A stretch of DNA of 24,929 nt from a virus (lineage: Duplodnaviria > Caudoviricetes), in IMG/VR virus record IMGVR_UViG_3300037755_000760, positions 1 through 24,929 of that record; one strand, given 5' to 3'. Below, one piece after another: positions 3,317-24,929 of this stretch. The notes below the pieces were generated by a model. That model was not told the DNA's origin, did not search any database, and saw nothing but the letters and a program-made list of their open reading frames with translations. The translations under genes and the position numbers were made by a program. The number at the start of each line of letters is the position of its first letter. The first letter of the stretch is position 1.

Positions 3317-4971
3317 TGGCCGCTCGCCGTCGCGCAAAGAAGCCGTCCGGCGATAGCCAGAGCGGAATCGTTGTTCAGCCACACACGCGGACGCGATCGA
3401 AGTGGACGCCGTCTCTCATCCGGTCCGCCGAAACCTTGGCCGACGCCGGAGACTTTCGGCTTGTGGGGGAGCTCTGCGAGTGGCTGCTCGGCGACGAGCA
3501 AATCGCTCGGCACCTCCACGCCCGCGCGCAAGCGTTGCTCGGGCTCGACCCGACTTTCGAGAAGAGCGGCGATAAGCGACGCTCGACTCGCGTCATCAGA
3601 GCACTCGAGGCCGGCGAGGACTGGTGGGACAGCTACCCTGAAGCCGAACTGACCGAGATCCTAATCTGGGGGATATTGCTCGGTTTCTCTGTCGCCCGCC
3701 ATCGATGGCAGGAGCTACGCGGACACGACGGCCGCATCCTGCCGCGGCCAGAAGTGTGGGAGGCACAACACGTCCGATACGACTGGACGGCTCGGACCTG
3801 GAAGGCGCTGGTCGTGTTGGGCAACAACACGAGCTCTGCTGGCGTAGAGGAGCCGTTCCAGCCCGGCGATGGAACGTGGTTGCTCCATTCGCCATATGGC
3901 GCGCACCGCCCGTGGCTCCGTGGACTCTGGAGAGGCCTTGGCCGATTCCGTCTGCTTCGTGATTACGCGGCATCGGACCTCGGGCGCCTTGGCGAGGACG
4001 CTACGCGCGAGGTCATCGAAACCGAAGCTGGATCGCAGGTCACCCCGGAGATGCGGCAGGAGCTAGCCGACGATCTCATGGACCTCGGGCGCGAAGCGAA
4101 GATCGTTCTGCCGCCTGGAATGACCTACAAGTTGGTGACCACCGCTCAGGGTGCCGCCGAGATTTTCCAGAAACAGTTCGACCTTGCGGAGCGCGCGTTC
4201 GCGATCGCGATCCGGGGTGGCAACCTGACGTCGAACGTGGAGGGCGGTAGTCGCGCGGCCGCCGAGGTGCAGGAGCGCCAGGGCGAACTCGTCAATCTTC
4301 GGTTCGACGCTCAGGGGCTCACGACAACGATCCACGATCAATCGCTCGTCTGGTGGGCAGAGTTCAATTTCGGCGACGCAGAGCTTGCCCCGTGGCCCGT
4401 CTACCCAGTCGATCCCGAGCGTGACATCGCCGCCGCAGCGAATGGCGCCGGAAAGGCCCTTGATGCTGCGGAGAAGGCGACGGCGCTTGGGTTTGAGGTG
4501 GACCATGAAGCGTTTTCGGAGGAGTTCGGGCTTTCGAAGTGGCTGAAAAAACCGCAGCGCCCCATTGCTCCACAGGTACCGCCGCGGAGCGCGCCAGCCC
4601 CCACCGATCCGGAGCTGGACTCGCGGCAGAGGTCTCGGCCGTCTGCACTGGTGGTGCGAAACTTACGACTCGCGTCCGGGGCATCCGTCTCTGAAGCGCC
4701 CGGCTTCGTCAACGGGCAACTATTCGCCGACGCGCTGACCGAGCGAGCGACCGGCGCTGGCGTAGCTGCCCTGCAAGGCACGATCGCTGCGATCGTGGAT
4801 GTCCTCGACTCCATCGCCGCCGACGACCCCGACCCCTGGGGCACACTTCGCGCACGGCTCCGCGAGAAGTACACCGAGCTCGACGCCGAGGCCTTGAGCG
4901 ACCTCGTGTTCCGCGCGATGGCCATGGCCGAGCTCGCGGGGCGCGCGTCCGTCCAGCAGGATCTCGAGTGA
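3316..4971 (+). CDS. Portal protein, Mu gp29/DUF935-like
   Basis: Follows terL with TGATG overlap. Motifs LLGFSVA, GGNLTS...GGSRAAAEVQE and C-terminal LREKYTELDAEALSDLVFRAMAMAELAGR are typical of DUF935 portals. Confidence 0.85.
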   Translation: MAARRRAKKPSGDSQSGIVVQPHTRTRSKWTPSLIRSAETLADAGDFRLVGELCEWLLGDEQIARHLHARAQALLGLDPTFEKSGDKRRSTRVIRALEAGEDWWDSYPEAELTEILIWGILLGFSVARHRWQELRGHDGRILPRPEVWEAQHVRYDWTARTWKALVVLGNNTSSAGVEEPFQPGDGTWLLHSPYGAHRPWLRGLWRGLGRFRLLRDYAASDLGRLGEDATREVIETEAGSQVTPEMRQELADDLMDLGREAKIVLPPGMTYKLVTTAQGAAEIFQKQFDLAERAFAIAIRGGNLTSNVEGGSRAAAEVQERQGELVNLRFDAQGLTTTIHDQSLVWWAEFNFGDAELAPWPVYPVDPERDIAAAANGAGKALDAAEKATALGFEVDHEAFSEEFGLSKWLKKPQRPIAPQVPPRSAPAPTDPELDSRQRSRPSALVVRNLRLASGASVSEAPGFVNGQLFADALTERATGAGVAALQGTIAAIVDVLDSIAADDPDPWGTLRARLREKYTELDAEALSDLVFRAMAMAELAGRASVQQDLE

Positions 4972-6521
4972 GCTGGGCGGTCACGGCCGACCCGGAACGG
5001 TTCACCGAGGCGGTCGACTGGGCGGCGGCGCGCATCGTCATCACGAAGGAGCAGGCGCTCGAGCTCGACAGCCGCGGGCGCCGTCAGGCCTTCTGGGTTG
5101 GCAACGGTCTCCAGCTCGAGCAGATTCAGCGCGTCTTCGACAAGCTGAACGGCGCGCAGGAGTCCGGTTTCCCCTTCGAGGACTGGCGGCGAGAGGTTCG
5201 CGCCGAGCTTACGAACGACGCGCACGCGGAAACCGTCTTCCGCAACGCCGTCCAGCGAGCCCTGAACGCCGGTAGGCTGCGCCAGCAGCGCGACCCGGAC
5301 GTCCTGGCACTGCGTTCGATCTGGGAATACGACAGCGTCCTGGACGACCGCACGACGGAGCTCTGCCGGTCCCTCGGCAGCCCAGCCGTACGTCTGCCAG
5401 CCGATCACCCGCGCTGGCTCACGATCTACCCACCGAATCACCATCGGTGCCGCGCCGGCGTCCGGAACATCACAGAGCGCCAGGCAGCGACCCGCGGCGG
5501 CGTCACGCCCGAGGACCAGCTCCCGGACGTGGAGCCCGACGCCGGATGGGCAGCGGCGCCGGACGGGGACGACGATGAGCCGCCGAAGCCGAAGCCGGAG
5601 AAGACCGACCCGGTGCTCCTGGCGGAGCTCGAACGCAAGCGCATCGCACCGCCGGCGCCGAGGCGCCGCAAGAAGACGAAGGCTCCCAAGGAGCACGACC
5701 CCGATCATTGGGAGGCGCAGTACCGGAAGCCCGGGGAGTTCGCGAAGGATGGATACGGCGAGGCAGCTCGAGCGGTCGCGTGGGGTCGAGCGATGGATGC
5801 GCGAGCGCTATCGCGACCAGCGTCCGAGGTGCTGTCCCAACTCCGCAAGGTGCACGAGCGGACTCGGAACCCCGTCGTCGAAAGTATCCTGGTTGAGTGG
5901 GAGGGCGTGCTCGAGGAGCTTGGGGACCGGCGCATCGGATCCATTGTGGCCGGTAACGCGAACCTTCGTGGCGCCGCAGCGATCGCGGAGCACACGCGAG
6001 CGGTCAAGCGTGGACGAAAGCTCCGCTTCACCGGGGCAGGGTTGCCCGACGAAGCGGTCCAATTCTACGACGGATTGCTCGATAAGTCGGTTACAAGGCC
6101 AAGCGTTCCCGTTCGTCGCCTGCAAGGGATTCGGGCTGGTTACTTGCCGGGATCGAAGCAGATCCACCTCGATGAATTCAGCGGCGTCGGCACGGCGATC
6201 CACGAGGCCGCGCACGCGCTCGAAGACCACGACGGACGTGCGCTCTCGAGGTCGCTTGCCTTTCTGGCGGCCAGGACGGCCGGCGAGGCGCCCCAAAAGC
6301 TCAAGGAGCTACGACCTGATCGGGACTATCGGGACAACGAGGTCACTCGCACCGATCGATTCTCCGACCCCTACATGGGCAAGGATTACGCGCCCCTGGG
6401 GCTGTCCGCGACCGAGATCACCTCGATGGGATACGAGCAGCTGTACCGTAGATGGCGAGACCTCTGGGACGAGGACCGGGAGCTGCTATACTTCCTGCTG
6501 GGCCAATTGGCCGGCAGGTGA
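4968..6521 (+). CDS. MuF/SPP1 gp7-like head morphogenesis protein with C-terminal HExxH zinc-metallopeptidase-like extension
   Basis: MuF motif WEYDSVLDDRTTELC...YPPNHHRCR, then a Pro/Lys linker, IHEAAH (His codons 6201-6215) and PYMGKDY...TEITSMG. Confidence 0.85.
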   Translation: MSWAVTADPERFTEAVDWAAARIVITKEQALELDSRGRRQAFWVGNGLQLEQIQRVFDKLNGAQESGFPFEDWRREVRAELTNDAHAETVFRNAVQRALNAGRLRQQRDPDVLALRSIWEYDSVLDDRTTELCRSLGSPAVRLPADHPRWLTIYPPNHHRCRAGVRNITERQAATRGGVTPEDQLPDVEPDAGWAAAPDGDDDEPPKPKPEKTDPVLLAELERKRIAPPAPRRRKKTKAPKEHDPDHWEAQYRKPGEFAKDGYGEAARAVAWGRAMDARALSRPASEVLSQLRKVHERTRNPVVESILVEWEGVLEELGDRRIGSIVAGNANLRGAAAIAEHTRAVKRGRKLRFTGAGLPDEAVQFYDGLLDKSVTRPSVPVRRLQGIRAGYLPGSKQIHLDEFSGVGTAIHEAAHALEDHDGRALSRSLAFLAARTAGEAPQKLKELRPDRDYRDNEVTRTDRFSDPYMGKDYAPLGLSATEITSMGYEQLYRRWRDLWDEDRELLYFLLGQLAGR

Positions 6522-6935: not shown

Positions 6936-7172
6936 ATGTCCTACGCCCAGCAGATCCCCGTCACCAAGAGCGACACGGTGGACATCCGCCCCGGCTTCGT
7001 CGCCTGGGCGCTGTGGATCGGTGACGCAGGCGACGGCACCCTGCGGGTCACGACCGAGCTCGGCGTGGTCGTGAACTACGCGAGCGTCGCGACTGGGCTG
7101 ATGCCGATTCGCGTCCGCCGAGTGCACAACACCGGGACGGGCGCGGCCGACATCGTGGCGCTCGCGCCGTAA
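6936..7172 (+). CDS. Head-spike base protein, RcGTA Rcc01079-like
   Basis: GGAG RBS. Pattern VTKSDTVDI..ALWIGDAGD..LMPIRVRRVHNTGTGAADIVAL matches the recalled family pattern VTPSD..ALYVG.AG..LP.RV.RV..TGT.A..IVAL. Confidence 0.75.
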   Translation: MSYAQQIPVTKSDTVDIRPGFVAWALWIGDAGDGTLRVTTELGVVVNYASVATGLMPIRVRRVHNTGTGAADIVALAP

Positions 7173-8646: not shown

Positions 8647-9885
8647 ATGGCCATCACTACGCAGTCCGACATGATCGACGTCCAAATCCTGATGGACGTG
8701 GTCCGCGGCGTCTTCAAGGGCAAAAACGCATTCATGGGATCGCCCCTGGTCTCTGCTGGTGCCGTCCGCGTCTCGGGGACGATGCCGAACCGTGGGCAGA
8801 GCGCAATCGGCAAGAAGGTCGACATCCCGTACTTCGGGTCGCTGGGAGAGTTCCTGCAGAACTCCGACGGAAACTCCGTCACGCCAAGCAAGCTCGGGCA
8901 ATTGCTCGAGCAAGCGACGATCGATCGCCACTCGCTGGCCGTGGAAGTCAGCCGCTGGGCGCAGGGTGTCGGCGCCATCGACCCTGCGGTGGGTGACCCC
9001 TACGACGAGGCAGCGCGGCAAATCATGACGGCCGCGGAACGGGCGATGGACGGCATCATCGTCACCGAATACGCGACGACGCCGCTCGTAGTCGACGTGT
9101 ACAGCGCATCGAGTCCGGTGTACCTCGACTGGGACCTCATCCAGGACGCCACCACGCTCTGGGGCGACGAGCAGGACGGGATCGTGGCCATGGCGATCCA
9201 CAGCCAGGGGCGCGCCGACCTGGCCAAGCTGAAGGACAACACGGGAAGGTTGCTGTGGGAGGTCGATCAGAAGGTCGGTCAGCAGCAGCTCAGGACCTTC
9301 GGCGGTGTGCCCTTGACGGTTTCCGACCGAGTCCCCCTCACCGGCTCGACGATGGGAACGGTCGTGTCGGCGGGCACGTCTCCGCCCGTCGCTACGCTTG
9401 CTGGTACGCCGCTCGGCCCGTGGAAGCTCTTCATCGACGCGATCACCGGCGATGCGACGACGTTGACGTTCCGGTTTTCGACGGACGGCGGCAACACGTG
9501 GTCGGCGACCTTGACCGCCGCCGACGACGGTGTCCCCGTTGCTCTCATCGACACGGCCACGGATTCTCTCGTGGGCGTCAACGGCAAGACGGGGCTCACG
9601 GTCGCGTTCGCGTCCGGGACGTTCAACGCGGACAACACATGGAAGGCGCAAGCCAACCTGAAGGTGACGGAGCTCATCTGCCAGGTCGACGCTGGCGCGT
9701 TCTGGTACAACGCCAATGCGCTGGGGCTGAAGTCGGACGAGGACATCCTGGCCGACACAGATATCACCGCGTCGCATCTCTACCACGCGCCCAAGCTCTA
9801 CCGCCGGCGCCGTGGCGGGTCGCGGCCTGGCGTGGTCGCGATCAAGCACAACGTTCGTGGATTCGTCGGCGTGGTCACGTTCTAA
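8647..9885 (+). CDS. Major capsid protein (HK97-fold expected) with ~100-aa insertion
   Basis: AGGAG RBS, position after the protease, and motifs GKKVDIPYFGSLGE, GDPYDEAARQI, AMAIHSQ, TFGGVPLTVSDRVP. Confidence 0.88.
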   Translation: MAITTQSDMIDVQILMDVVRGVFKGKNAFMGSPLVSAGAVRVSGTMPNRGQSAIGKKVDIPYFGSLGEFLQNSDGNSVTPSKLGQLLEQATIDRHSLAVEVSRWAQGVGAIDPAVGDPYDEAARQIMTAAERAMDGIIVTEYATTPLVVDVYSASSPVYLDWDLIQDATTLWGDEQDGIVAMAIHSQGRADLAKLKDNTGRLLWEVDQKVGQQQLRTFGGVPLTVSDRVPLTGSTMGTVVSAGTSPPVATLAGTPLGPWKLFIDAITGDATTLTFRFSTDGGNTWSATLTAADDGVPVALIDTATDSLVGVNGKTGLTVAFASGTFNADNTWKAQANLKVTELICQVDAGAFWYNANALGLKSDEDILADTDITASHLYHAPKLYRRRRGGSRPGVVAIKHNVRGFVGVVTF

Positions 9886-10173: not shown

Positions 10174-10440
10174 ATGTCCGAGATCAAGCGTCCTCGGCGC
10201 TACTACCTCCACAAGCGCCTTCAAGCGGCGCTGTATGAGGAAAGCGACATCGAGCTCACGTGGCAAGCCAAGCAAGAATCGGAGCCGGGGACACCGCTGC
10301 CCACGTCATTCCCACACCGCGCTGCGCTCGCCGCGTTCGGATACACGACCACTGAAGACCTTGACGGCGCCGACGCTGACGAGCTCTTGCGAGTCGGGTT
10401 TAGTACTGACGACGCAAAAGCAATCATCGAGGCGCTTTGA
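10174..10440 (+). CDS. Small protein with helix-hairpin-helix-like C-terminus
   Basis: ALAAFGYTTTEDLDGADADELLRVGFSTDDAKAIIEAL resembles NusA-CTD/RadA-N-type HhH motifs. Confidence 0.65.
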   Translation: MSEIKRPRRYYLHKRLQAALYEESDIELTWQAKQESEPGTPLPTSFPHRAALAAFGYTTTEDLDGADADELLRVGFSTDDAKAIIEAL

Positions 10441-11020: not shown

Positions 11021-11719
11021 ATGGCCGACCCCAAGGCGATCACGCTCAACGCTCTCGGCGAGGTCACAGCCGACGGCCAGGGCGCTGGCGTCGAGCTCGA
11101 CGTGCTGCATCGTGCCGCAAAGGTCGAGCTCGAGATTGCCGAGGCCGCGGGCGAAATCACGGTCACGATCGAGACGGCGCCAGAAGCGGCTGGCCCGTGG
11201 CGTCGAGGCCTCGAGTTCGACCCGCTGGCACAGCCCGGAACCTACGAGCTTTGTGTCGACGGTTTGTCCCGATGGGTGCGCGCCACGTGGGTCACCAGCG
11301 CGACCGTGACCTTCGCCGTGGCCGGCTCCGCCCACGTCCTCTACGCGGACGTTCGGGAAATCTCGCTACCAGGCGCAGCAATTCGCAACCTCGAGCGGAG
11401 CGCGCTCGTCAAGGCCGCGATCGACGCCACAGGCGAAGCGGAAACATATCTAGCGAGCGCCTACACGCTGCCGCTCGTGGCCTGGCCGGACGAGCTACGG
11501 CGAAAGATCGGGCACCTCATGGCCTACGAGGTGATGAGGATTCGCGGGTTTCAGCCGCAGGGTCCGGACGAGATCCTCTTGCTTGACCGAGACAAGGCGA
11601 TCACGTGGCTGAACCGGATCGCCAACGGCGGGCTACGTCCACCGGGAATCGTCGACTCGACGCCCGAGGAATACGAACCGGGAGCAGTCGTGGTCAGCCG
11701 CCCGCGGCGCGGTTGGTAG
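11021..11719 (+). CDS. Head-tail adaptor (Mu gp36/DUF1320-like) with extra N-terminal beta domain
   Basis: The C-terminal half has YAD..., DATGEAETYLASAYTLPL...PDELRR...DKAITWLNRIANG. Confidence 0.8.
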   Translation: MADPKAITLNALGEVTADGQGAGVELDVLHRAAKVELEIAEAAGEITVTIETAPEAAGPWRRGLEFDPLAQPGTYELCVDGLSRWVRATWVTSATVTFAVAGSAHVLYADVREISLPGAAIRNLERSALVKAAIDATGEAETYLASAYTLPLVAWPDELRRKIGHLMAYEVMRIRGFQPQGPDEILLLDRDKAITWLNRIANGGLRPPGIVDSTPEEYEPGAVVVSRPRRGW

Positions 11720-13524: not shown

Positions 13525-15024
13525 ATGGTCTACCCTCCCCAGCAAACGATCAACGTCCGGTCGAACGGCATCGGCCTCACGGGCGCGAACGTCGTCCTTC
13601 CGCTCGTCATCGGCCACACCTCGGCCGGAACGCCGGACACGCTCTACCAGTACACCGACCCGCAGAAGCTCAAGGACGAGCAGGGGCACGGCGCGGGCGT
13701 CGAGGTGGCGCTCGGTCAGGTGCTTGGCGGCGCCGGCGGTTGCTTGCTCCTGGTCCCCACGGCGTCCACGGCGGGCGCCGCGGGCTCGGTGACCAAGACG
13801 GCCGCAGGAAGCGGCACCGGCACCGTCACGGTCGCGGGGGAGCCCTACCTCCCATTCCGCGTGAAGGTGCGGATTCGACTCGGAGGCGTGCTCGGAGCGG
13901 CCAAGTTCGACTTCACGCTCGACGACGCGGGAGACGACCTTCTGAGCACGTTCTCGGCCGTGCGCACGGTGCCTTCGGGCGGGACGTTCGCCATCCCCGG
14001 GACGAACCTCACGCTGACGTTCGTTCCTGGCGCCGGGACGCCCACGACCTACGACACGGGCGACACCCACACGTTCGTCTGCACGGCGCCGCAGTACACG
14101 ACGAGCGACCTCGGGACCGCGGTGACGGCCCTGCTCGACCAGATCGGCGTCCGCAAGATCCGTAGGGTCTTCGGCACTCACGAGAGCGCGAGCGGTTCCG
14201 CCGGCGCCACGATGGCGACCGCCTTCGCGACGCATCTCCAGACGCTCGAAGGTAAAGCCTACTTCGCCCGCGCCATGGTGGGCGCCGGGAGCGACACGGC
14301 CGCCAACGTCATCAGCGGATTCGCCTCGTTCGCGGACGACCGCGTAGCGGTCTGCCACGGGCTCGGCGAGATGGTGGCGCTCGACGCCTTCGAGGGCTGG
14401 GGCGTGCCGCGCGTACCGGCGAGCTGGATCGTCGCGCGCCGGGAGGCCGCGACGTCGCTCTCGGAAAACCTCGGGCGTCGCCTGTCCGGGAACCTGTCCG
14501 GATTCGTACGCGCCATTCGCGGCACCGCCGGGGCCTGGGGCTACGACGAGGAGCTCGACGGCGCGTTCAGCGAAGACGACCGCATCATCACGCTCACGAG
14601 CCAGCGCGGGCGCCCGGGCTTCTGGGCAACGAACGGCTTTCTCAAGAGCGCGCCCGGCTCGGACTTCAAGTTCTGGCACTGGGGCAAGGTCGTGGACATC
14701 GCGTCCGAGGTCATCAAGGACGAGCAAGACAAGGACCTCTTGCGCAGCGTGCGGACGATCGTGAAGGGTGCGATCAATCCGCTCGACCCGCGCGAAGCCG
14801 ACGCCATCAACCAGCGCGTGCGCCAAGCGCTCGCGGCGGCGCTCTCGGATCCGCCGAACGCGGAGGGAGAGAAGGGACACGTCACGGCGTTCTCGTACGC
14901 CGTCGACGAGACCGTCGACTTCATCGGCAGCGGCATCTACTTCTCCAACTTCAACGCGATTCCGCTCCGAGACATCGAGGGAATCGTCACCAACATCGGA
15001 CTCGCGCGGCGCCTGGCCGCGTAA
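13525..15024 (+). CDS. Contractile tail sheath protein (DUF2586-like)
   Basis: 499 aa; RIITLTSQRGRPGFWATNGFLKSAPGSDF...KVVDIA and C-terminal IPLRDIEGIVTNIG; precedes the tube gene. Confidence 0.85.
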   Translation: MVYPPQQTINVRSNGIGLTGANVVLPLVIGHTSAGTPDTLYQYTDPQKLKDEQGHGAGVEVALGQVLGGAGGCLLLVPTASTAGAAGSVTKTAAGSGTGTVTVAGEPYLPFRVKVRIRLGGVLGAAKFDFTLDDAGDDLLSTFSAVRTVPSGGTFAIPGTNLTLTFVPGAGTPTTYDTGDTHTFVCTAPQYTTSDLGTAVTALLDQIGVRKIRRVFGTHESASGSAGATMATAFATHLQTLEGKAYFARAMVGAGSDTAANVISGFASFADDRVAVCHGLGEMVALDAFEGWGVPRVPASWIVARREAATSLSENLGRRLSGNLSGFVRAIRGTAGAWGYDEELDGAFSEDDRIITLTSQRGRPGFWATNGFLKSAPGSDFKFWHWGKVVDIASEVIKDEQDKDLLRSVRTIVKGAINPLDPREADAINQRVRQALAAALSDPPNAEGEKGHVTAFSYAVDETVDFIGSGIYFSNFNAIPLRDIEGIVTNIGLARRLAA

Positions 15025-16212: not shown

Positions 16213-18225
16213 GTGGACGACGACGCAGACTTCACGCTGAAGCTCCTGAACCAGCTTTCCGGCCCCGCCAAGAAGATGGCGGCGGACGTCCGGACGCTGG
16301 AGCGCGAGCTCGAGAGTCTCGACCGCGCAGCCGCCGCGATGCGCGGGCCCGAAGCGCTGAAGCGCTTCGACTTGTCGCGCCAGATCCGGCAAGCCAAGCA
16401 GGCGCAGGCCTTCCAGAAGCAGATCACGGCCTCGATCGTCAAAGAGCAGCTCGCCCGCTCGCAGGCGCGGGACGCCCAGATCCTCCAGCGCAACAAGGAA
16501 GTCCGGGCCGCCCAGGACGCCATGCGCTCGGCGATCGTGACCGAGCAGAAGAAGCGGCAGCAGATCCGCAAGCAAGAGCGCGACCTACTCCAGAACATCC
16601 GCAATGCACGCCTGACCCGAAAGAACGAGTTTTTTGACACCGCCGGTGCGTTCGTGATGCGGAGCGCCTTGATCGGTGTGAGCGTTGCAGCGGCGGCCGC
16701 GGCCGCCGCTATTGCTGTTTTGGCGTTCAAGTTCACGAGCGCGACCCACGAGTCGATCAAGTTCCGGCAGACCTCGCTCCTCGCGCTCGAAAAGCTGACG
16801 GGGAGCTCGGTCACGGCAGCCGGTCAATTCGACTCGACCCGGCGCGAGGCGGAGCGGCTCGGCCAAGACGTGTTCGAGACGCAGAAGGCGTTCCAGAAGC
16901 TCCTGGCCGCGCAATTCGAGGTCGGGAAGGCGCGGGAGATCCTGCGCATGAGCGCGGACCTCCGGGCCATCGGCGCGAGCGCCGAGGAGGTGCACCGCGC
17001 GCTCCTCGCGATGACGCAGATCAAATCGAAGGGCCGGCTCATGGCAGAGGAGATGCTCCAGCTCCAGGAAGCCGGAATCTCCGCCGAGCTCGTCTACAAG
17101 GTGCTCGGCGAGCGGCTCGGAAAGACCACGGCCGAGCTCCGCAAGATGCAGGAGCAGGGCCAGATCGACTCCGTGATGGGCATCGAGGCCATCATCGACG
17201 CGGTCAAGCTGAAGACGGGCGTCGAGACCACGGGCGAGGCCGGCGCCGACTTCGCATCGAAGACGCTCGAGGGCCAGGAAGCGCAGCTCAAGGGGTTTTT
17301 CCAAAACCTCTTCATCGACATCGGCGCCGCGGTCGAACCCGTGTTCGTGCCGATCGTGGGCAAGCTGATCGAGCTCTTGAAGTCGATCGCGAAAAACCCG
17401 GACGTCCAGGCCCTCGGGACGTTCCTGCTCAACCGGTTCGAGCTCTTCGGCATGTGGGTCGAGGCGAACTGGCCGACGATCATGGGAGTCATCAACACCG
17501 GCATTTCGCTCGTAGCGAGCCTCATTCGCGGCGCCGTCGATACCATCGACTTTTTCGCGCAGAACTGGGAGACGGTGCGGACGGTGCTGATCGGCGTGGG
17601 GATCGTGCTCGGGATCCTGGCGGCCGGAGCCGCCCTCGTCCTCGCTCCGTTCCTGCTGTTCACCGCCGCAGTGCTGGCAGTCGTCGGGGCGGTAGCGTTC
17701 GTGATCGGATGGGTCGCCTCTCACGTGGGAGACTGGTTCAGCGCCGGGGCAGACCTCATCGGGGGCCTGATCGACGGGATCACGAGCAAGTTCACCGGCG
17801 CCGTCGATGCCGTAAAGCAGTTCGGAAACGACGTGCTGGCCGCATTCAAGCGGGTCACCGGAATCGCGAGCCCCTCCAGGGTCTTCGAGGACTACGGGCA
17901 GTTCACGGTCGAGGGCTACGTCCGCGGCATCGTCGCCAACGACAACGCCGCCATGGCCGCCACCCGTGACCTCGGCATGGCCGCAAACGACGGCATCCAG
18001 TCCGAGCTCGGGCAGGCGCCCACGCTGCTCCGCTCGCAGACGACGGCGGCCGCCGCGACCGCCGACCTCGACGCGCTCCGGGGCGACGACATCAGCACCG
18101 TGCGAATCGGCAACGTCAGCGTCCAGGTCACCGTCAACGGCGACGCTGACGCCGAGCAGGTGAAGCAGGGCGTCGAGTCCGGGACGCTCGACGCGCTCGA
18201 GCGCTTCTTCGGCGAGGCGTCGTGA
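16213..18225 (+). CDS. Tape measure protein
   Basis: FTLKLLNQLSGPAK start, coiled coils, QIKSKGRLMAEEMLQLQEAGI core motif, hydrophobic segments, GIASPSRVF. Confidence 0.92.
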   Translation: MDDDADFTLKLLNQLSGPAKKMAADVRTLERELESLDRAAAAMRGPEALKRFDLSRQIRQAKQAQAFQKQITASIVKEQLARSQARDAQILQRNKEVRAAQDAMRSAIVTEQKKRQQIRKQERDLLQNIRNARLTRKNEFFDTAGAFVMRSALIGVSVAAAAAAAAIAVLAFKFTSATHESIKFRQTSLLALEKLTGSSVTAAGQFDSTRREAERLGQDVFETQKAFQKLLAAQFEVGKAREILRMSADLRAIGASAEEVHRALLAMTQIKSKGRLMAEEMLQLQEAGISAELVYKVLGERLGKTTAELRKMQEQGQIDSVMGIEAIIDAVKLKTGVETTGEAGADFASKTLEGQEAQLKGFFQNLFIDIGAAVEPVFVPIVGKLIELLKSIAKNPDVQALGTFLLNRFELFGMWVEANWPTIMGVINTGISLVASLIRGAVDTIDFFAQNWETVRTVLIGVGIVLGILAAGAALVLAPFLLFTAAVLAVVGAVAFVIGWVASHVGDWFSAGADLIGGLIDGITSKFTGAVDAVKQFGNDVLAAFKRVTGIASPSRVFEDYGQFTVEGYVRGIVANDNAAMAATRDLGMAANDGIQSELGQAPTLLRSQTTAAAATADLDALRGDDISTVRIGNVSVQVTVNGDADAEQVKQGVESGTLDALERFFGEAS

Positions 18226-18773
18226 CCTGGCTCACGAACCTCTTGGCGTTCCGACGCCTGTTCGTCAATGGGTCCGAGCATTCGCCGCGGCGTGACGACC
18301 TGGAATTGATCGGGCCGGGCGTAGCGGCCACTGACGAAGACGAGCGAACCAAGGTGGACCTCACGCCTCCGTTCATCCGATACCTCGCGCAGGGCACGAG
18401 CCTCGCCTTTGGGGCGAAACTTGCGCTCTCGGATCCGGTGGGCACCCCCGGATTTTCCCTCGCGAGCGACGAGGTCGAGCTCCCCTTCGCCGGCATCTAC
18501 GAATTCTCGCTCTCGGGCAGCGCGACGAGCGACGACACCGCGAACCCGAAGCAGATCGCGATCGCGCTCCAGATTGCCGGGACACCCGTCATGAGCGGCG
18601 GAGGCTGGCGCTTCAGCGCGAACACCTCGCACGACGTCCTCTGCACGGTGGTCGGCGCCTTCGAAATCACCGACCCCGCCACACAGAAAGTGTCGGTCGT
18701 GGCGGACGCGACCAACGGCTTGACCGGCGCCGCTCACCTCATCATCCGCCAACGCACGATCACGCTGCCGTGA
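18222..18773 (+). CDS. Short fibre/appendage-like protein with BclA-CTD/C1q-like C-terminal domain
   Basis: N-terminus is paralogous to the ORF at 24660. The C-terminus has VELPFAGIYEFSLSG...AHLIIRQ. Confidence 0.6.
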   Translation: MTWLTNLLAFRRLFVNGSEHSPRRDDLELIGPGVAATDEDERTKVDLTPPFIRYLAQGTSLAFGAKLALSDPVGTPGFSLASDEVELPFAGIYEFSLSGSATSDDTANPKQIAIALQIAGTPVMSGGGWRFSANTSHDVLCTVVGAFEITDPATQKVSVVADATNGLTGAAHLIIRQRTITLP

Positions 18774-20430: not shown

Positions 20431-20933
20431 GTCTCCAGTACGTGGGCGGAAAGTCGCTCCTGGCGGCGTTGCCGTTGACGGCGCAAGCGGTCGGGGCCGT
20501 GAATGCGGCCGCCGGCGCTTCGCTTGCAGACCTACAGGCGCGACTGGCCGGCGCCGTGGCGTTGCAGGCTGGGGTTGCGCTGAGTCCACCGAGCTTGACG
20601 GACCTGATCGCCGCGTTGCAGGCGCTCATCGAGCAGATTCTCGCGCTCCTGGCGCAGCCAGCGTCGCCGCCAATCGTCGTGAACGTGTCCGCCATGGCGG
20701 CTGTCGCGGCGGAGCTGCAAGCGGCAATCGGTCTGTTGCAGGCGCAGCTCGCGCTCGCAGCATCCATCAGCGGGACCCTCGGCGCCGGTATCCACCTGTA
20801 CCGCTACGACGGGCCTGCGTCAGGTCTCGTGGTCCCACCCGACACCACGCCCGACCAGCCGACGCTTGGCGTCGTCCTCGTCGCAACGGGTCCCACCGCA
20901 CAGGCGGCGCTTCGGGCCACATTTTCGATCTAG
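20427..20933 (+). CDS. Ala/Leu-rich helical hypothetical baseplate-region protein
   Basis: GTGA overlap with the previous gene. Long amphipathic helices precede GIHLYRYDG. Confidence 0.65.
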   Translation: MSLQYVGGKSLLAALPLTAQAVGAVNAAAGASLADLQARLAGAVALQAGVALSPPSLTDLIAALQALIEQILALLAQPASPPIVVNVSAMAAVAAELQAAIGLLQAQLALAASISGTLGAGIHLYRYDGPASGLVVPPDTTPDQPTLGVVLVATGPTAQAALRATFSI

Positions 20934-21226
20934 CGAAGCAGCCAGCGGAATAAGGCCAGCGTCAGAACTATCCCCGCAATTGCAGCAAGCGCCTGGCCGC
21001 CGGTCATCTTGAGTCCAGACGCGCTGGGCTTCGGGGCCAGAGCTCCGCATGTCGTGCAGCGCCACCGGTTGCTGCCCGACAGCGATGCAAGGATCCAGAT
21101 GGGGATCCAGGTCCAACAGAGACAGAGCGACACTACTCCGTGCACGAGGTGAGCGGGAGCGCGGCGCTCGAATCTCGTGTACTGCTGGCAAGCGTGACAC
21201 CAGTCGCGAGTGTGCTCGATCGGCAT
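20930..21226 (-). CDS. LITAF-like zinc-ribbon membrane protein
   Basis: CHAC, hydrophobic hairpin HLVHGVVSLCLCWTWIPIWIL, WRCTTC, then a C-terminal TM helix. Confidence 0.75.
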   Translation of the reverse strand: MPIEHTRDWCHACQQYTRFERRAPAHLVHGVVSLCLCWTWIPIWILASLSGSNRWRCTTCGALAPKPSASGLKMTGGQALAAIAGIVLTLALFRWLLR

Positions 21227-21230
21227 CGCG

Positions 21231-21791
21231 TCATCCGTTCGAGCAACAGTGCATGAGAGCCGCTGCGCCAGCGTCGGAGCAGTCCGTCACCGGGTCCGTC
21301 TCGCAAGGGAACTCGGCGCCGTCGGAAGCAAAGAACCCAGTCTTCCCTTCGCACGAGTAGTTGCCCACATCACAAAGCGCGCAGTGCGCTCCGATCGCAG
21401 CCGAGCACGGCGTCTCACACGCCTCGATCTCCGGGCACTCGTCCACCGGTCCGCCCGCTCCGGCTCCCGAGCTCGCGGCGCCACCTTCGGACGGAGCGCC
21501 ACCCTCACCCGGAACCGTTCCGCCGGCGCCGCCGCTCGGAGTCGAAGGCTCGCCGGCCTCCCCCGCCGACGCGTCACCCGTGCGCTCGCCCGCACTACCC
21601 GCGTCCACGAGCTCGCCCGCGGCGCCGACCTGCGCCCCCGACGACACCTCGCCACCGCTTCCCGCAGCACCGCCCTCTCCTGCCTCGCCAGCGGCCCCGG
21701 CGCCGCCCTCATCTCGCTTTCCGCCCGTCGGCCCCGGAAGGTCGCTCCACCCGCAAGCGAGCGTGACGAGGCCGAGGAGCACGGCGCGCAT
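21231..21791 (-). CDS. Putative lipoprotein with Gly/Ala/Glu linker and Cys-rich C-terminal domain
   Basis: MRAVLLGLVTLA-C lipobox-like signal, GGAGAAGEAGEGG linker, 10 Cys in the last ~70 aa; GGGAG upstream. Confidence 0.78.
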   Translation of the reverse strand: MRAVLLGLVTLACGWSDLPGPTGGKRDEGGAGAAGEAGEGGAAGSGGEVSSGAQVGAAGELVDAGSAGERTGDASAGEAGEPSTPSGGAGGTVPGEGGAPSEGGAASSGAGAGGPVDECPEIEACETPCSAAIGAHCALCDVGNYSCEGKTGFFASDGAEFPCETDPVTDCSDAGAAALMHCCSNG

Positions 21792-24108: not shown

Positions 24109-24663
24109 ATGACCGATATCACCGACGTCGACGAGTTCACCGACCCGATCCAGCACGCGATCAACGCGGGCGAAACCATCAACGCGGCCGACGTGAACAC
24201 CGCGATCCAGGGGATCGCGAACCGGACCAGGAACGCTAAAAATCGCTTGGACCTGCTGGGCATCGCTGCACATTTTAGCGTATCCGGCTCTGGAGTCGCC
24301 GACAACGGCCGCTTTACGCTGACTAAGGTCGCCGACGTCGGCGGAACGTTCAACGTTGTCGGAGATGGCATACAGGTTCCCGCAGTAGGCACATACCTTT
24401 GCACGTGGTATGTGCTCGTTACAGCGAGCGGCACCACGGATCCACAGTTTGTCGAAGCGCGCCTAGGTGGCACTGGTGGCCCCTACGCTTCGTTCCACCG
24501 GCTCGGTGGCAGCTCGTCGACGACCATGCACCTGTCATCCGCGGGTATACTCACGATCAGCTCGCTCCCTAGCGATATCGAACTGCTGTCGCTAACCAAC
24601 ACGGTCACTCTGACCGGAGCCGGTGCCCCGGCGGGCAGAATCGCAATCGTCAAAGTGGCATGA
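24109..24663 (+). CDS. Short tail fibre protein
   Basis: N-terminal fibre attachment motif NTAIQGIANRTRNAK. The C-terminal IQVPAVGTYLCTW...GRIAIVKV is BclA-CTD/C1q-like. Confidence 0.7.
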   Translation: MTDITDVDEFTDPIQHAINAGETINAADVNTAIQGIANRTRNAKNRLDLLGIAAHFSVSGSGVADNGRFTLTKVADVGGTFNVVGDGIQVPAVGTYLCTWYVLVTASGTTDPQFVEARLGGTGGPYASFHRLGGSSSTTMHLSSAGILTISSLPSDIELLSLTNTVTLTGAGAPAGRIAIVKVA

Positions 24664-24929
24664 GCGATCCCATCTGGCCCCCCAACCTGCTCGCGGTCCG
24701 CCACATCTGGGCGAACGGTGTGCAGAAATCGCCACGACGCGACCACCTCGAGTTCGTGGGGTCGGGCGTCACGGTCACCGACGCCAACGGCCGCACCAAG
24801 GTCAACGTCGGCGGCGTCGCCCCGACCATCCTCGACGCCCTCCGCAACACAACCGAGGCCTTCTCCACCCCGAACACCACAGCGCCCATCACCGACACCG
24901 ACGTCGAGTTCGCGACCGTCGCCGCCGGC
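24660..24929 (+). CDS. Fibre/appendage-like protein, 3'-truncated (absent from ORF track)
   Basis: ATGA overlap; open to the window end (MSDPIWPPNLLAVRHIWANGVQKSPRRDHLEF...). N-terminus is paralogous to 18222..18773. Confidence 0.8.
   Translation, partial: MSDPIWPPNLLAVRHIWANGVQKSPRRDHLEFVGSGVTVTDANGRTKVNVGGVAPTILDALRNTTEAFSTPNTTAPITDTDVEFATVAAG

Follow-up and report, generated by a model that had tools for sequence, protein, structure and literature searches.

Small beta-sandwich domains that shuffle among virion proteins are already known. According to Fraser et al. 2006, as quoted in the relevant portions of PMC9230969, Ig-like accessory domains occur on tailed-phage virion proteins, and the same portions describe extra sheath domains for which adhesion is proposed. 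Among inserted outer domains, the P22 coat protein's I-domain (aa 222-345) is presented in the cited sections of PMC9965877 as a beta-barrel inserted in the A-domain and engaged in inter-subunit salt bridges. The cited sections of PMC12810830 describe the P1 I-domain with a T4-style I-domain linker and attribute to it a contribution to stability, and those of PMC7385642 present domain 2 of the chi/YSD1 tail tube as an inserted Ig-variant sandwich that lies outside the virion polymer and braces its neighbours, latching them in YSD1.

The window studied here, a virus record analysed over its 24,929 bases, encodes a Mu-like myophage morphogenesis block comprising terminase, Mu-type portal, gpF-like head protein, ClpP-type protease, capsid, gp36-like adaptor, sheath, tape measure and baseplate J genes. 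Judged by the sheath, the closest cultured phages are Meiothermus MMP7/MMP17, Thermus Riverbug and Myxococcus Mx4, and one related locus (L047) is harboured by a Myxococcales MAG. The gpF-like head protein (4968-6521) has a C-terminal extension with a HEAAH (HExxH) motif, which suggests the fusion of a metallopeptidase-like domain to a protein of MuF type. A 78-aa gene 5' of the protease gene (6936-7172) matches a PHROG annotated as tail fibre (E 3e-12), and a small gene 3' of the capsid gene (10174-10440), whose position appears by eye to be kept in relatives, has a weak helix-hairpin-helix match (PF14520, E 0.0016). Within the baseplate cluster, a Gly/Ala-rich and Cys-rich lipoprotein-like gene (21231-21791, minus strand) adjoins a small zinc-ribbon-like gene (20930-21226), both antisense to the cluster and moron-like, and the genes at 18222-18773 and 24660-24929 look alike by eye in their N-terminal stretch. 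The features that concern us most belong to a domain present in both capsid and sheath, hereafter the module:

8647..9885, plus strand: major capsid protein, 412 aa, HK97 fold, SPP1 gp13-like (phrog_247, E 1e-11; SPP1 coat 4an5 the best PDB sequence match, E 5e-4; model resembling HK97-fold capsids)
9343..9663, plus strand: inserted all-beta module, capsid aa 233-339, A-domain region (AlphaFold strands; missing at the equivalent site in the Riverbug and MMP17 capsids)
9478..9501, plus strand: Asp-box-like beta-hairpin motif within the module, aa 278-285 (weak BNR PF02012 matches)
9544..9594, plus strand: conserved acidic loop region, capsid aa 300-316, main capsid group only (conservation and alignment)
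13525..15024, plus strand: contractile tail sheath, DUF2586 family, 499 aa (PF10758, E 1.4e-11; phrog_907 tail sheath; sheath annotation of its relatives in MMP17, Riverbug and Mx4)
13774..14094, plus strand: second module copy, sheath aa 84-190, outer domain (profile match to the capsid insert; Atlas model matches)

Both fold and sequence link the window capsid to the gp13-like coats with HK97 fold. The capsids of Riverbug (286 aa) and MMP17 (287 aa) match both flanks of the module but do not have the module itself, which occurs at the equivalent site in 5 of 91 Riverbug-like capsid homologues and in none of the other 86. Because it is missing in 81 of the 86 full-length homologues (at least 270 aa), sequence comparison shows that the capsid module is a true insertion, not HK97 core. 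Together with the AlphaFold strands, this bears out the original prediction of an all-beta, mobile module in capsid and sheath lying outside that core; the contrary case, a piece of the core common to all homologues, does not hold, since most Riverbug-like capsids have no such segment. In a core-only capsid tree, the module-bearing capsids form two groups (33 and 5 rows, support 99 each) whose sister relation has a support of only 23, so that capsid lineages may have gained the module once or twice. The acidic loop belongs to the main group, where its mean majority-residue fraction is 0.83, against 0.69-0.74 in the capsid core, and L300, D302, D306, S307, G310, G313 and G316 are invariant; its extra residues do not occur in sheath or flagellar copies, nor in the five Riverbug-like capsids of the second group.

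Modelled with AlphaFold from a 120-row alignment, capsid aa 231-340 are all-beta, with eight strands and pLDDT 87-94. Coevolution over 613 unique copies (effective number 448) pairs strands 3-4, 4-5, 3-8, 1-2, 2-7, 7-8 and 1-8 and implies the pairing 6-7 with no direct signal for it. The coevolving residue pairs include M236-A336, L261-A334, D264-R276, R276-W285 and A249-V319, the triad D264-R276-W285 being the strongest, and family-wide conservation falls mainly on glycines and on residues of the turns and core. This pairing and DSSP of the model fit a predicted A-B-E-D / F-C-C'-C'' arrangement without G, suggesting an Ig-like sandwich minus its last strand, with sheets 1-2-7-6 and 8-3-4-5, which we take to be the Ig topology short of the final strand. 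Such a topology would bring both ends together and thereby make the module graftable into a loop. None of the Pfam, PHROG or PDB sequence families covers it. Over 69 copies, no curated Ig-like Pfam model (I-set, FN3, Big) reaches its cut-off, the best being Big_12 (E 0.021, 15.5 bits against 27, in 2 of 69), and sheath domain II (PF17481) matches 0 of 69 at E up to 0.1. In the Atlas, the sheath module resembles part of a 952-aa PF04984/PF17482 sheath (TM 0.75) and, as a lead only, has a feature score of 0.75 with a cluster containing 11% PF17481. BNR PF02012 weakly matches 17 of the 69 copies, the better PDB sequence matches of the module cover the Asp-box motif only, and no member was found by sequence among the solved structures of the PDB. 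A BNR/Asp-box beta-propeller was rejected: it has several Asp-box blades per chain, whereas each module, a domain of eight strands, has a single motif.

The sheath matches PF10758 with 44.6 bits (cut-off 26.4) and its gene sits 5' of the tube gene, which identifies it as a DUF2586 contractile sheath. The motifs from which the original prediction deduced a kinship between the capsid insert and the sheath outer domain are all present in the two segments, and the kinship is confirmed by family profiles of capsid aa 233-339 and sheath aa 84-190, which match at 97.9% (E 3.9e-13). These derive from alignments of 119 capsid and 119 sheath homologues plus the window proteins, after removal of the sheath record of the window itself and of one fragment that came from the window; between full-length capsid and sheath profiles, the match is confined to the module. 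With the capsid model as query against predicted viral structures, Foldseek returned amid capsids one short match, to a 472-aa protein (129 columns, 24% identity, E 4.7e-7); the MMP17 sheath has the same length, and our guess is that it is this protein. Convergence between Gly/Thr-rich beta strands with an Asp-box motif might mimic such kinship: the two segments are only weakly similar in pairwise BLASTP (no better than E 0.04), and Asp-box repeat proteins do yield false profile matches, 18 among the best 150 of 3510. However, the best of 20 column-shuffled profiles reaches 12.8%, reversed columns fail too, the match remains at 96.7% after deletion of the Asp-box hairpin from the profile, and intermediate copies bridge the capsid and sheath groups. 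Convergence, ruled out by the shuffled, reversed and Asp-box-deleted profile controls, keeps a vanishingly small probability.

Searching 1.84 billion representatives with the module profile yielded 3510 clusters at E<=0.001, a set that includes some false matches due to the Asp-box. The best 150 of these, a selection that favours multi-copy proteins and thus inflates the share of sheaths, comprise 81 sheaths recognised by their core profile, 4 capsids, 47 other proteins and 18 without a full-length module; by Pfam, the 47 include 5 DUF2586, 4 baseplate J, 2 gp36 and 5 pectate-lyase-like proteins. Hosts of the module besides capsid and sheath are neck adaptor, baseplate J, tailspike-like and tail-tube proteins. 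Among 48 related loci, it was found in gp36 adaptors identified by Pfam (L037/L038), in genes at the tail-terminator position with no family match (L023-L025), in a small protein of no named family (L046) and, in two copies each, in the sheaths of L017/L018, L033 and L048. Mx4 has it in baseplate J (iE 4.9e-11) as well as in the sheath, two chi/JBD30-type tail tubes have weak copies (L120, iE 2e-4 with the phage profile, and L113, matched only by profiles that include flagellar rows), and tandem arrays reach up to four copies (P0244). The claim that the module is displayed on head and sheath therefore stands insofar as both carry it, and fails insofar as nothing reserves it for them, many other virion proteins and bacterial flagellar proteins having it too.

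Some arrangements deserve separate mention. In two sheaths (L044:5914-7845 and L005:14520-16640) a further domain of ~140 aa is nested within the module, and in L019:11775-20285 a module-bearing capsid gene is followed by 9 kb with no recognisable sheath and with fibre-like genes instead. The 512-aa protein P0326 has an apparent signal peptide, a C-terminal membrane helix and two module copies, which suggests that the module is used on a cell surface. The gp36-like adaptor of the window (11021-11719) has an additional beta-rich N-terminal part (~aa 1-105); sequences that resemble it by eye are separate small genes in the relatives L019, L021, L023 and L037, probably coding for a protein of decoration type; L046, P0291 and P0298 have the module inserted in a protein that, also by eye, resembles this part.

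Relatives of the module occur in FliD, FlgK and FlgL of Myxococcota and Desulfobacterota. A phage-only profile has matches in 21 of the 251 genomes of the phylum of G001, in FliD for 10 of those, and a profile of the FliD module reaches 95.0% against the module of the capsid and 95.8% against that of the sheath, where core-only controls stay at 0.2-0.3%. On 40 further loci, collected with the FliD alignment, the phage-only profile matches FlgK in three (iE 5e-15 to 3e-13); a flagellin-family gene adjoining FlgK, taken as FlgL, also matches it, at up to about 2e-12. In the Atlas, the model of sheath aa 84-190 resembles an adaptor-insert model (TM 0.85), predicted FlgK (TM 0.74 and 0.69) and predicted FlgL (0.61), the flagellar models all being from Thermodesulfobacteriota clusters. 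Full-length profile homology and matching predicted fold thus concur for the outer domains of FlgK, FlgL and FliD; no solved flagellar structure was matched by sequence, so that the homology is demonstrated for the Myxococcota and Desulfobacterota lineages only. In the module tree, 31 of 31 flagellar copies lie on one side of a branch with support 98, a grouping favoured by the collection of most of them with the FliD profile. The FlgK and FlgL copies of L103 and L106 are near each other in the tree, in parallel to the sharing within virions, and FlgL-like proteins of ~1070 aa (L114:8468-11674, L116:8801-11998) have up to four copies.

Because the window's capsid copy has its closest kin on other capsids and not on the sheath of the same phage, and the two segments share no long DNA match, they represent an old graft and not a recent within-genome duplication. 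The sheath lineage would be the main reservoir of the module: sheaths account for 81 of the best 150 of 3510, a share inflated as noted, plus 5 more by Pfam, against 4 capsids, and phages with module-free capsids have module-bearing sheaths. The capsid lineage would have acquired its copy at the P22 I-domain site, a sheath-to-capsid direction left as a proposal by poorly resolved module trees (about 96 columns; over three samplings, the number of changes required for the capsid label is 2, 1 and 4), and this copy would later have evolved its own conserved acidic loop for capsid-specific contacts. The many related loci that have both copies would agree with head and sheath copies acting as a matched pair, for example for mutual recognition or through a common assembly factor. 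Yet L020 and L026 combine a module-bearing capsid with an unrelated, module-free phrog_165 sheath, which uncouples the head and tail copies; Riverbug, MMP17 (sheath module iE 2e-31 and 1.8e-28, respectively) and Mx4, with its gpT-type capsid, have the module on the sheath and none on the capsid; and the affinity of the window's capsid copy with other capsids points the same way. A matched pair is largely refuted by this distribution, and we hold it to be extremely improbable.

From HK97 and sheath architecture, we infer that the module is surface-exposed and in high copy. We picture these ~100 residues as a plug-in accessory of the virion exterior, grafted into a loop, whose head and tail copies would act independently of each other. 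That this portable surface accessory likely braces neighbouring subunits of the lattice is a reading we hold with about as much doubt as conviction. In its favour, the module, unlike a fast-varying receptor-binding part, is conserved much like its host protein (0.72 against 0.69/0.74 in capsids, 0.66 against 0.59/0.60 in sheaths), the capsid loop even more so, and inserted outer domains brace in P22, P1 and YSD1. However, weak binding to some common glycan would also keep the module conserved, and most related capsids are without the module, although separate cement proteins may serve there. The scaffolds also have very different geometry (tandem arrays, tailspike-like proteins, flagellar tips), which implies no single conserved lattice partner and agrees at least equally well with a generic role in adhesion or shielding.

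Adhesion, which the original prediction had offered alongside stabilisation, could take the form of weak multivalent binding to host-surface glycans or extracellular matrix by a module that head and tail display in hundreds of copies and that would act likewise at the tips of flagella. We consider this the main alternative, close behind bracing though on balance unlikely. It agrees with the pectate-lyase-like beta-helix neighbours in 5 of the 47 non-sheath, non-capsid members of the best 150 of 3510, with the tandem repeats, with P0326, which by eye looks membrane-anchored, with the presence of the module in FliD, FlgK and FlgL, with the D264-R276-W285 triad, which could make an exposed patch, and with the adhesive role hypothesised for extra sheath domains in the cited portions of PMC9230969. 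It agrees less well with a family-wide conservation concentrated at glycines, turns and core, and with a conserved loop proper to the capsid copy. Phages and deltaproteobacterial hosts might even trade one adhesive surface domain between virions and flagella, binding the same matrix or cell-surface ligand; we find this doubtful, and if true the virion would be coated, on capsid, neck, sheath, baseplate, tube and tailspike, with a flagellum-type domain of the cap and hook-filament junction. Little weight also goes to a tolerated passenger or steric shield that spreads by autonomous folding with adjacent ends and provides at most protease protection or folding help. Gain, duplication and loss over unrelated scaffolds, and close relatives without the module in the capsid (Riverbug, MMP17) or sheath (L020, L026), agree with it, but conservation equals that of the structural core in capsid and sheath, and the module is kept in 120 of 120 capsid and 120 of 120 sheath sequences, sets biased by their choice on full-length score. 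Bracing remains our preferred reading, and natural capsids with and without the insert, the latter in cultured Thermus and Meiothermus phages, make adhesion versus stabilisation by virion accessory domains directly testable.

The module defines a large uncurated domain family, with no curated model in the databases searched and no description found in the literature searched. Like the phage Ig-like accessory domains, as presented in the cited portions of PMC9230969, it is a small beta-sandwich swapped between structural proteins and sometimes repeated, for which adhesion or stabilisation is proposed; unlike them, it stays below the cut-off of Ig-like Pfam families, is predicted to have no last Ig strand, has an Asp-box hairpin, is inserted in loops, including that of the HK97 A-domain, and extends to flagellar proteins. 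By the order of elements in the model against the P22 domain limits, the capsid copy lies within the A-domain, at a place equivalent to that of the P22 I-domain, which is also all-beta and of similar size (both ~100-120 aa). The P22 domain is a beta-barrel in the sections cited above, whereas the module is a predicted two-sheet sandwich, so that it would add another type to the HK97 capsid insertions, one of different fold that likely occupies the same site. The alignment of the P22 coat to the capsid model spans 247 residues, which does not exceed the span reached by capsids that have no insert, whole-model matches stopping short of the insert, and there is no P22-like coat among the PDB matches to the module profiles at E up to 10 (all 54 for one search, the best 60 of 67 for another). 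A P1-type I-domain was ruled out, P1 gp23 and gp22 giving negative bit scores against three module profiles and hhalign probabilities of at most 0.3%. The T4-style I-domain site is the E-loop. T4/P1-type I-domains, as far as the cited sections of PMC12810830 describe them, share with the module an outward, beta-rich insertion in the major capsid protein that adds inter-capsomer contacts, but use the T4-style linker site instead of the A-domain. Domain 2 of the chi/YSD1 tube, in the cited sections on it, is of similar design, an inserted exterior sandwich, but its sequence sets it apart as a different domain; the related tube L113 has the module nested within the domain-2 region as an additional insertion. 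The outer beta domains of FlgK, FlgL and FliD in Myxococcota and Desulfobacterota are homologous to the module (profile 95-96%, iE down to 5e-15, predicted-model TM 0.61-0.74) and differ in forming their own group in the module tree, and this kinship with domains of the flagellar cap and junction suggests that the nanomachines of phage and host have exchanged surface modules.
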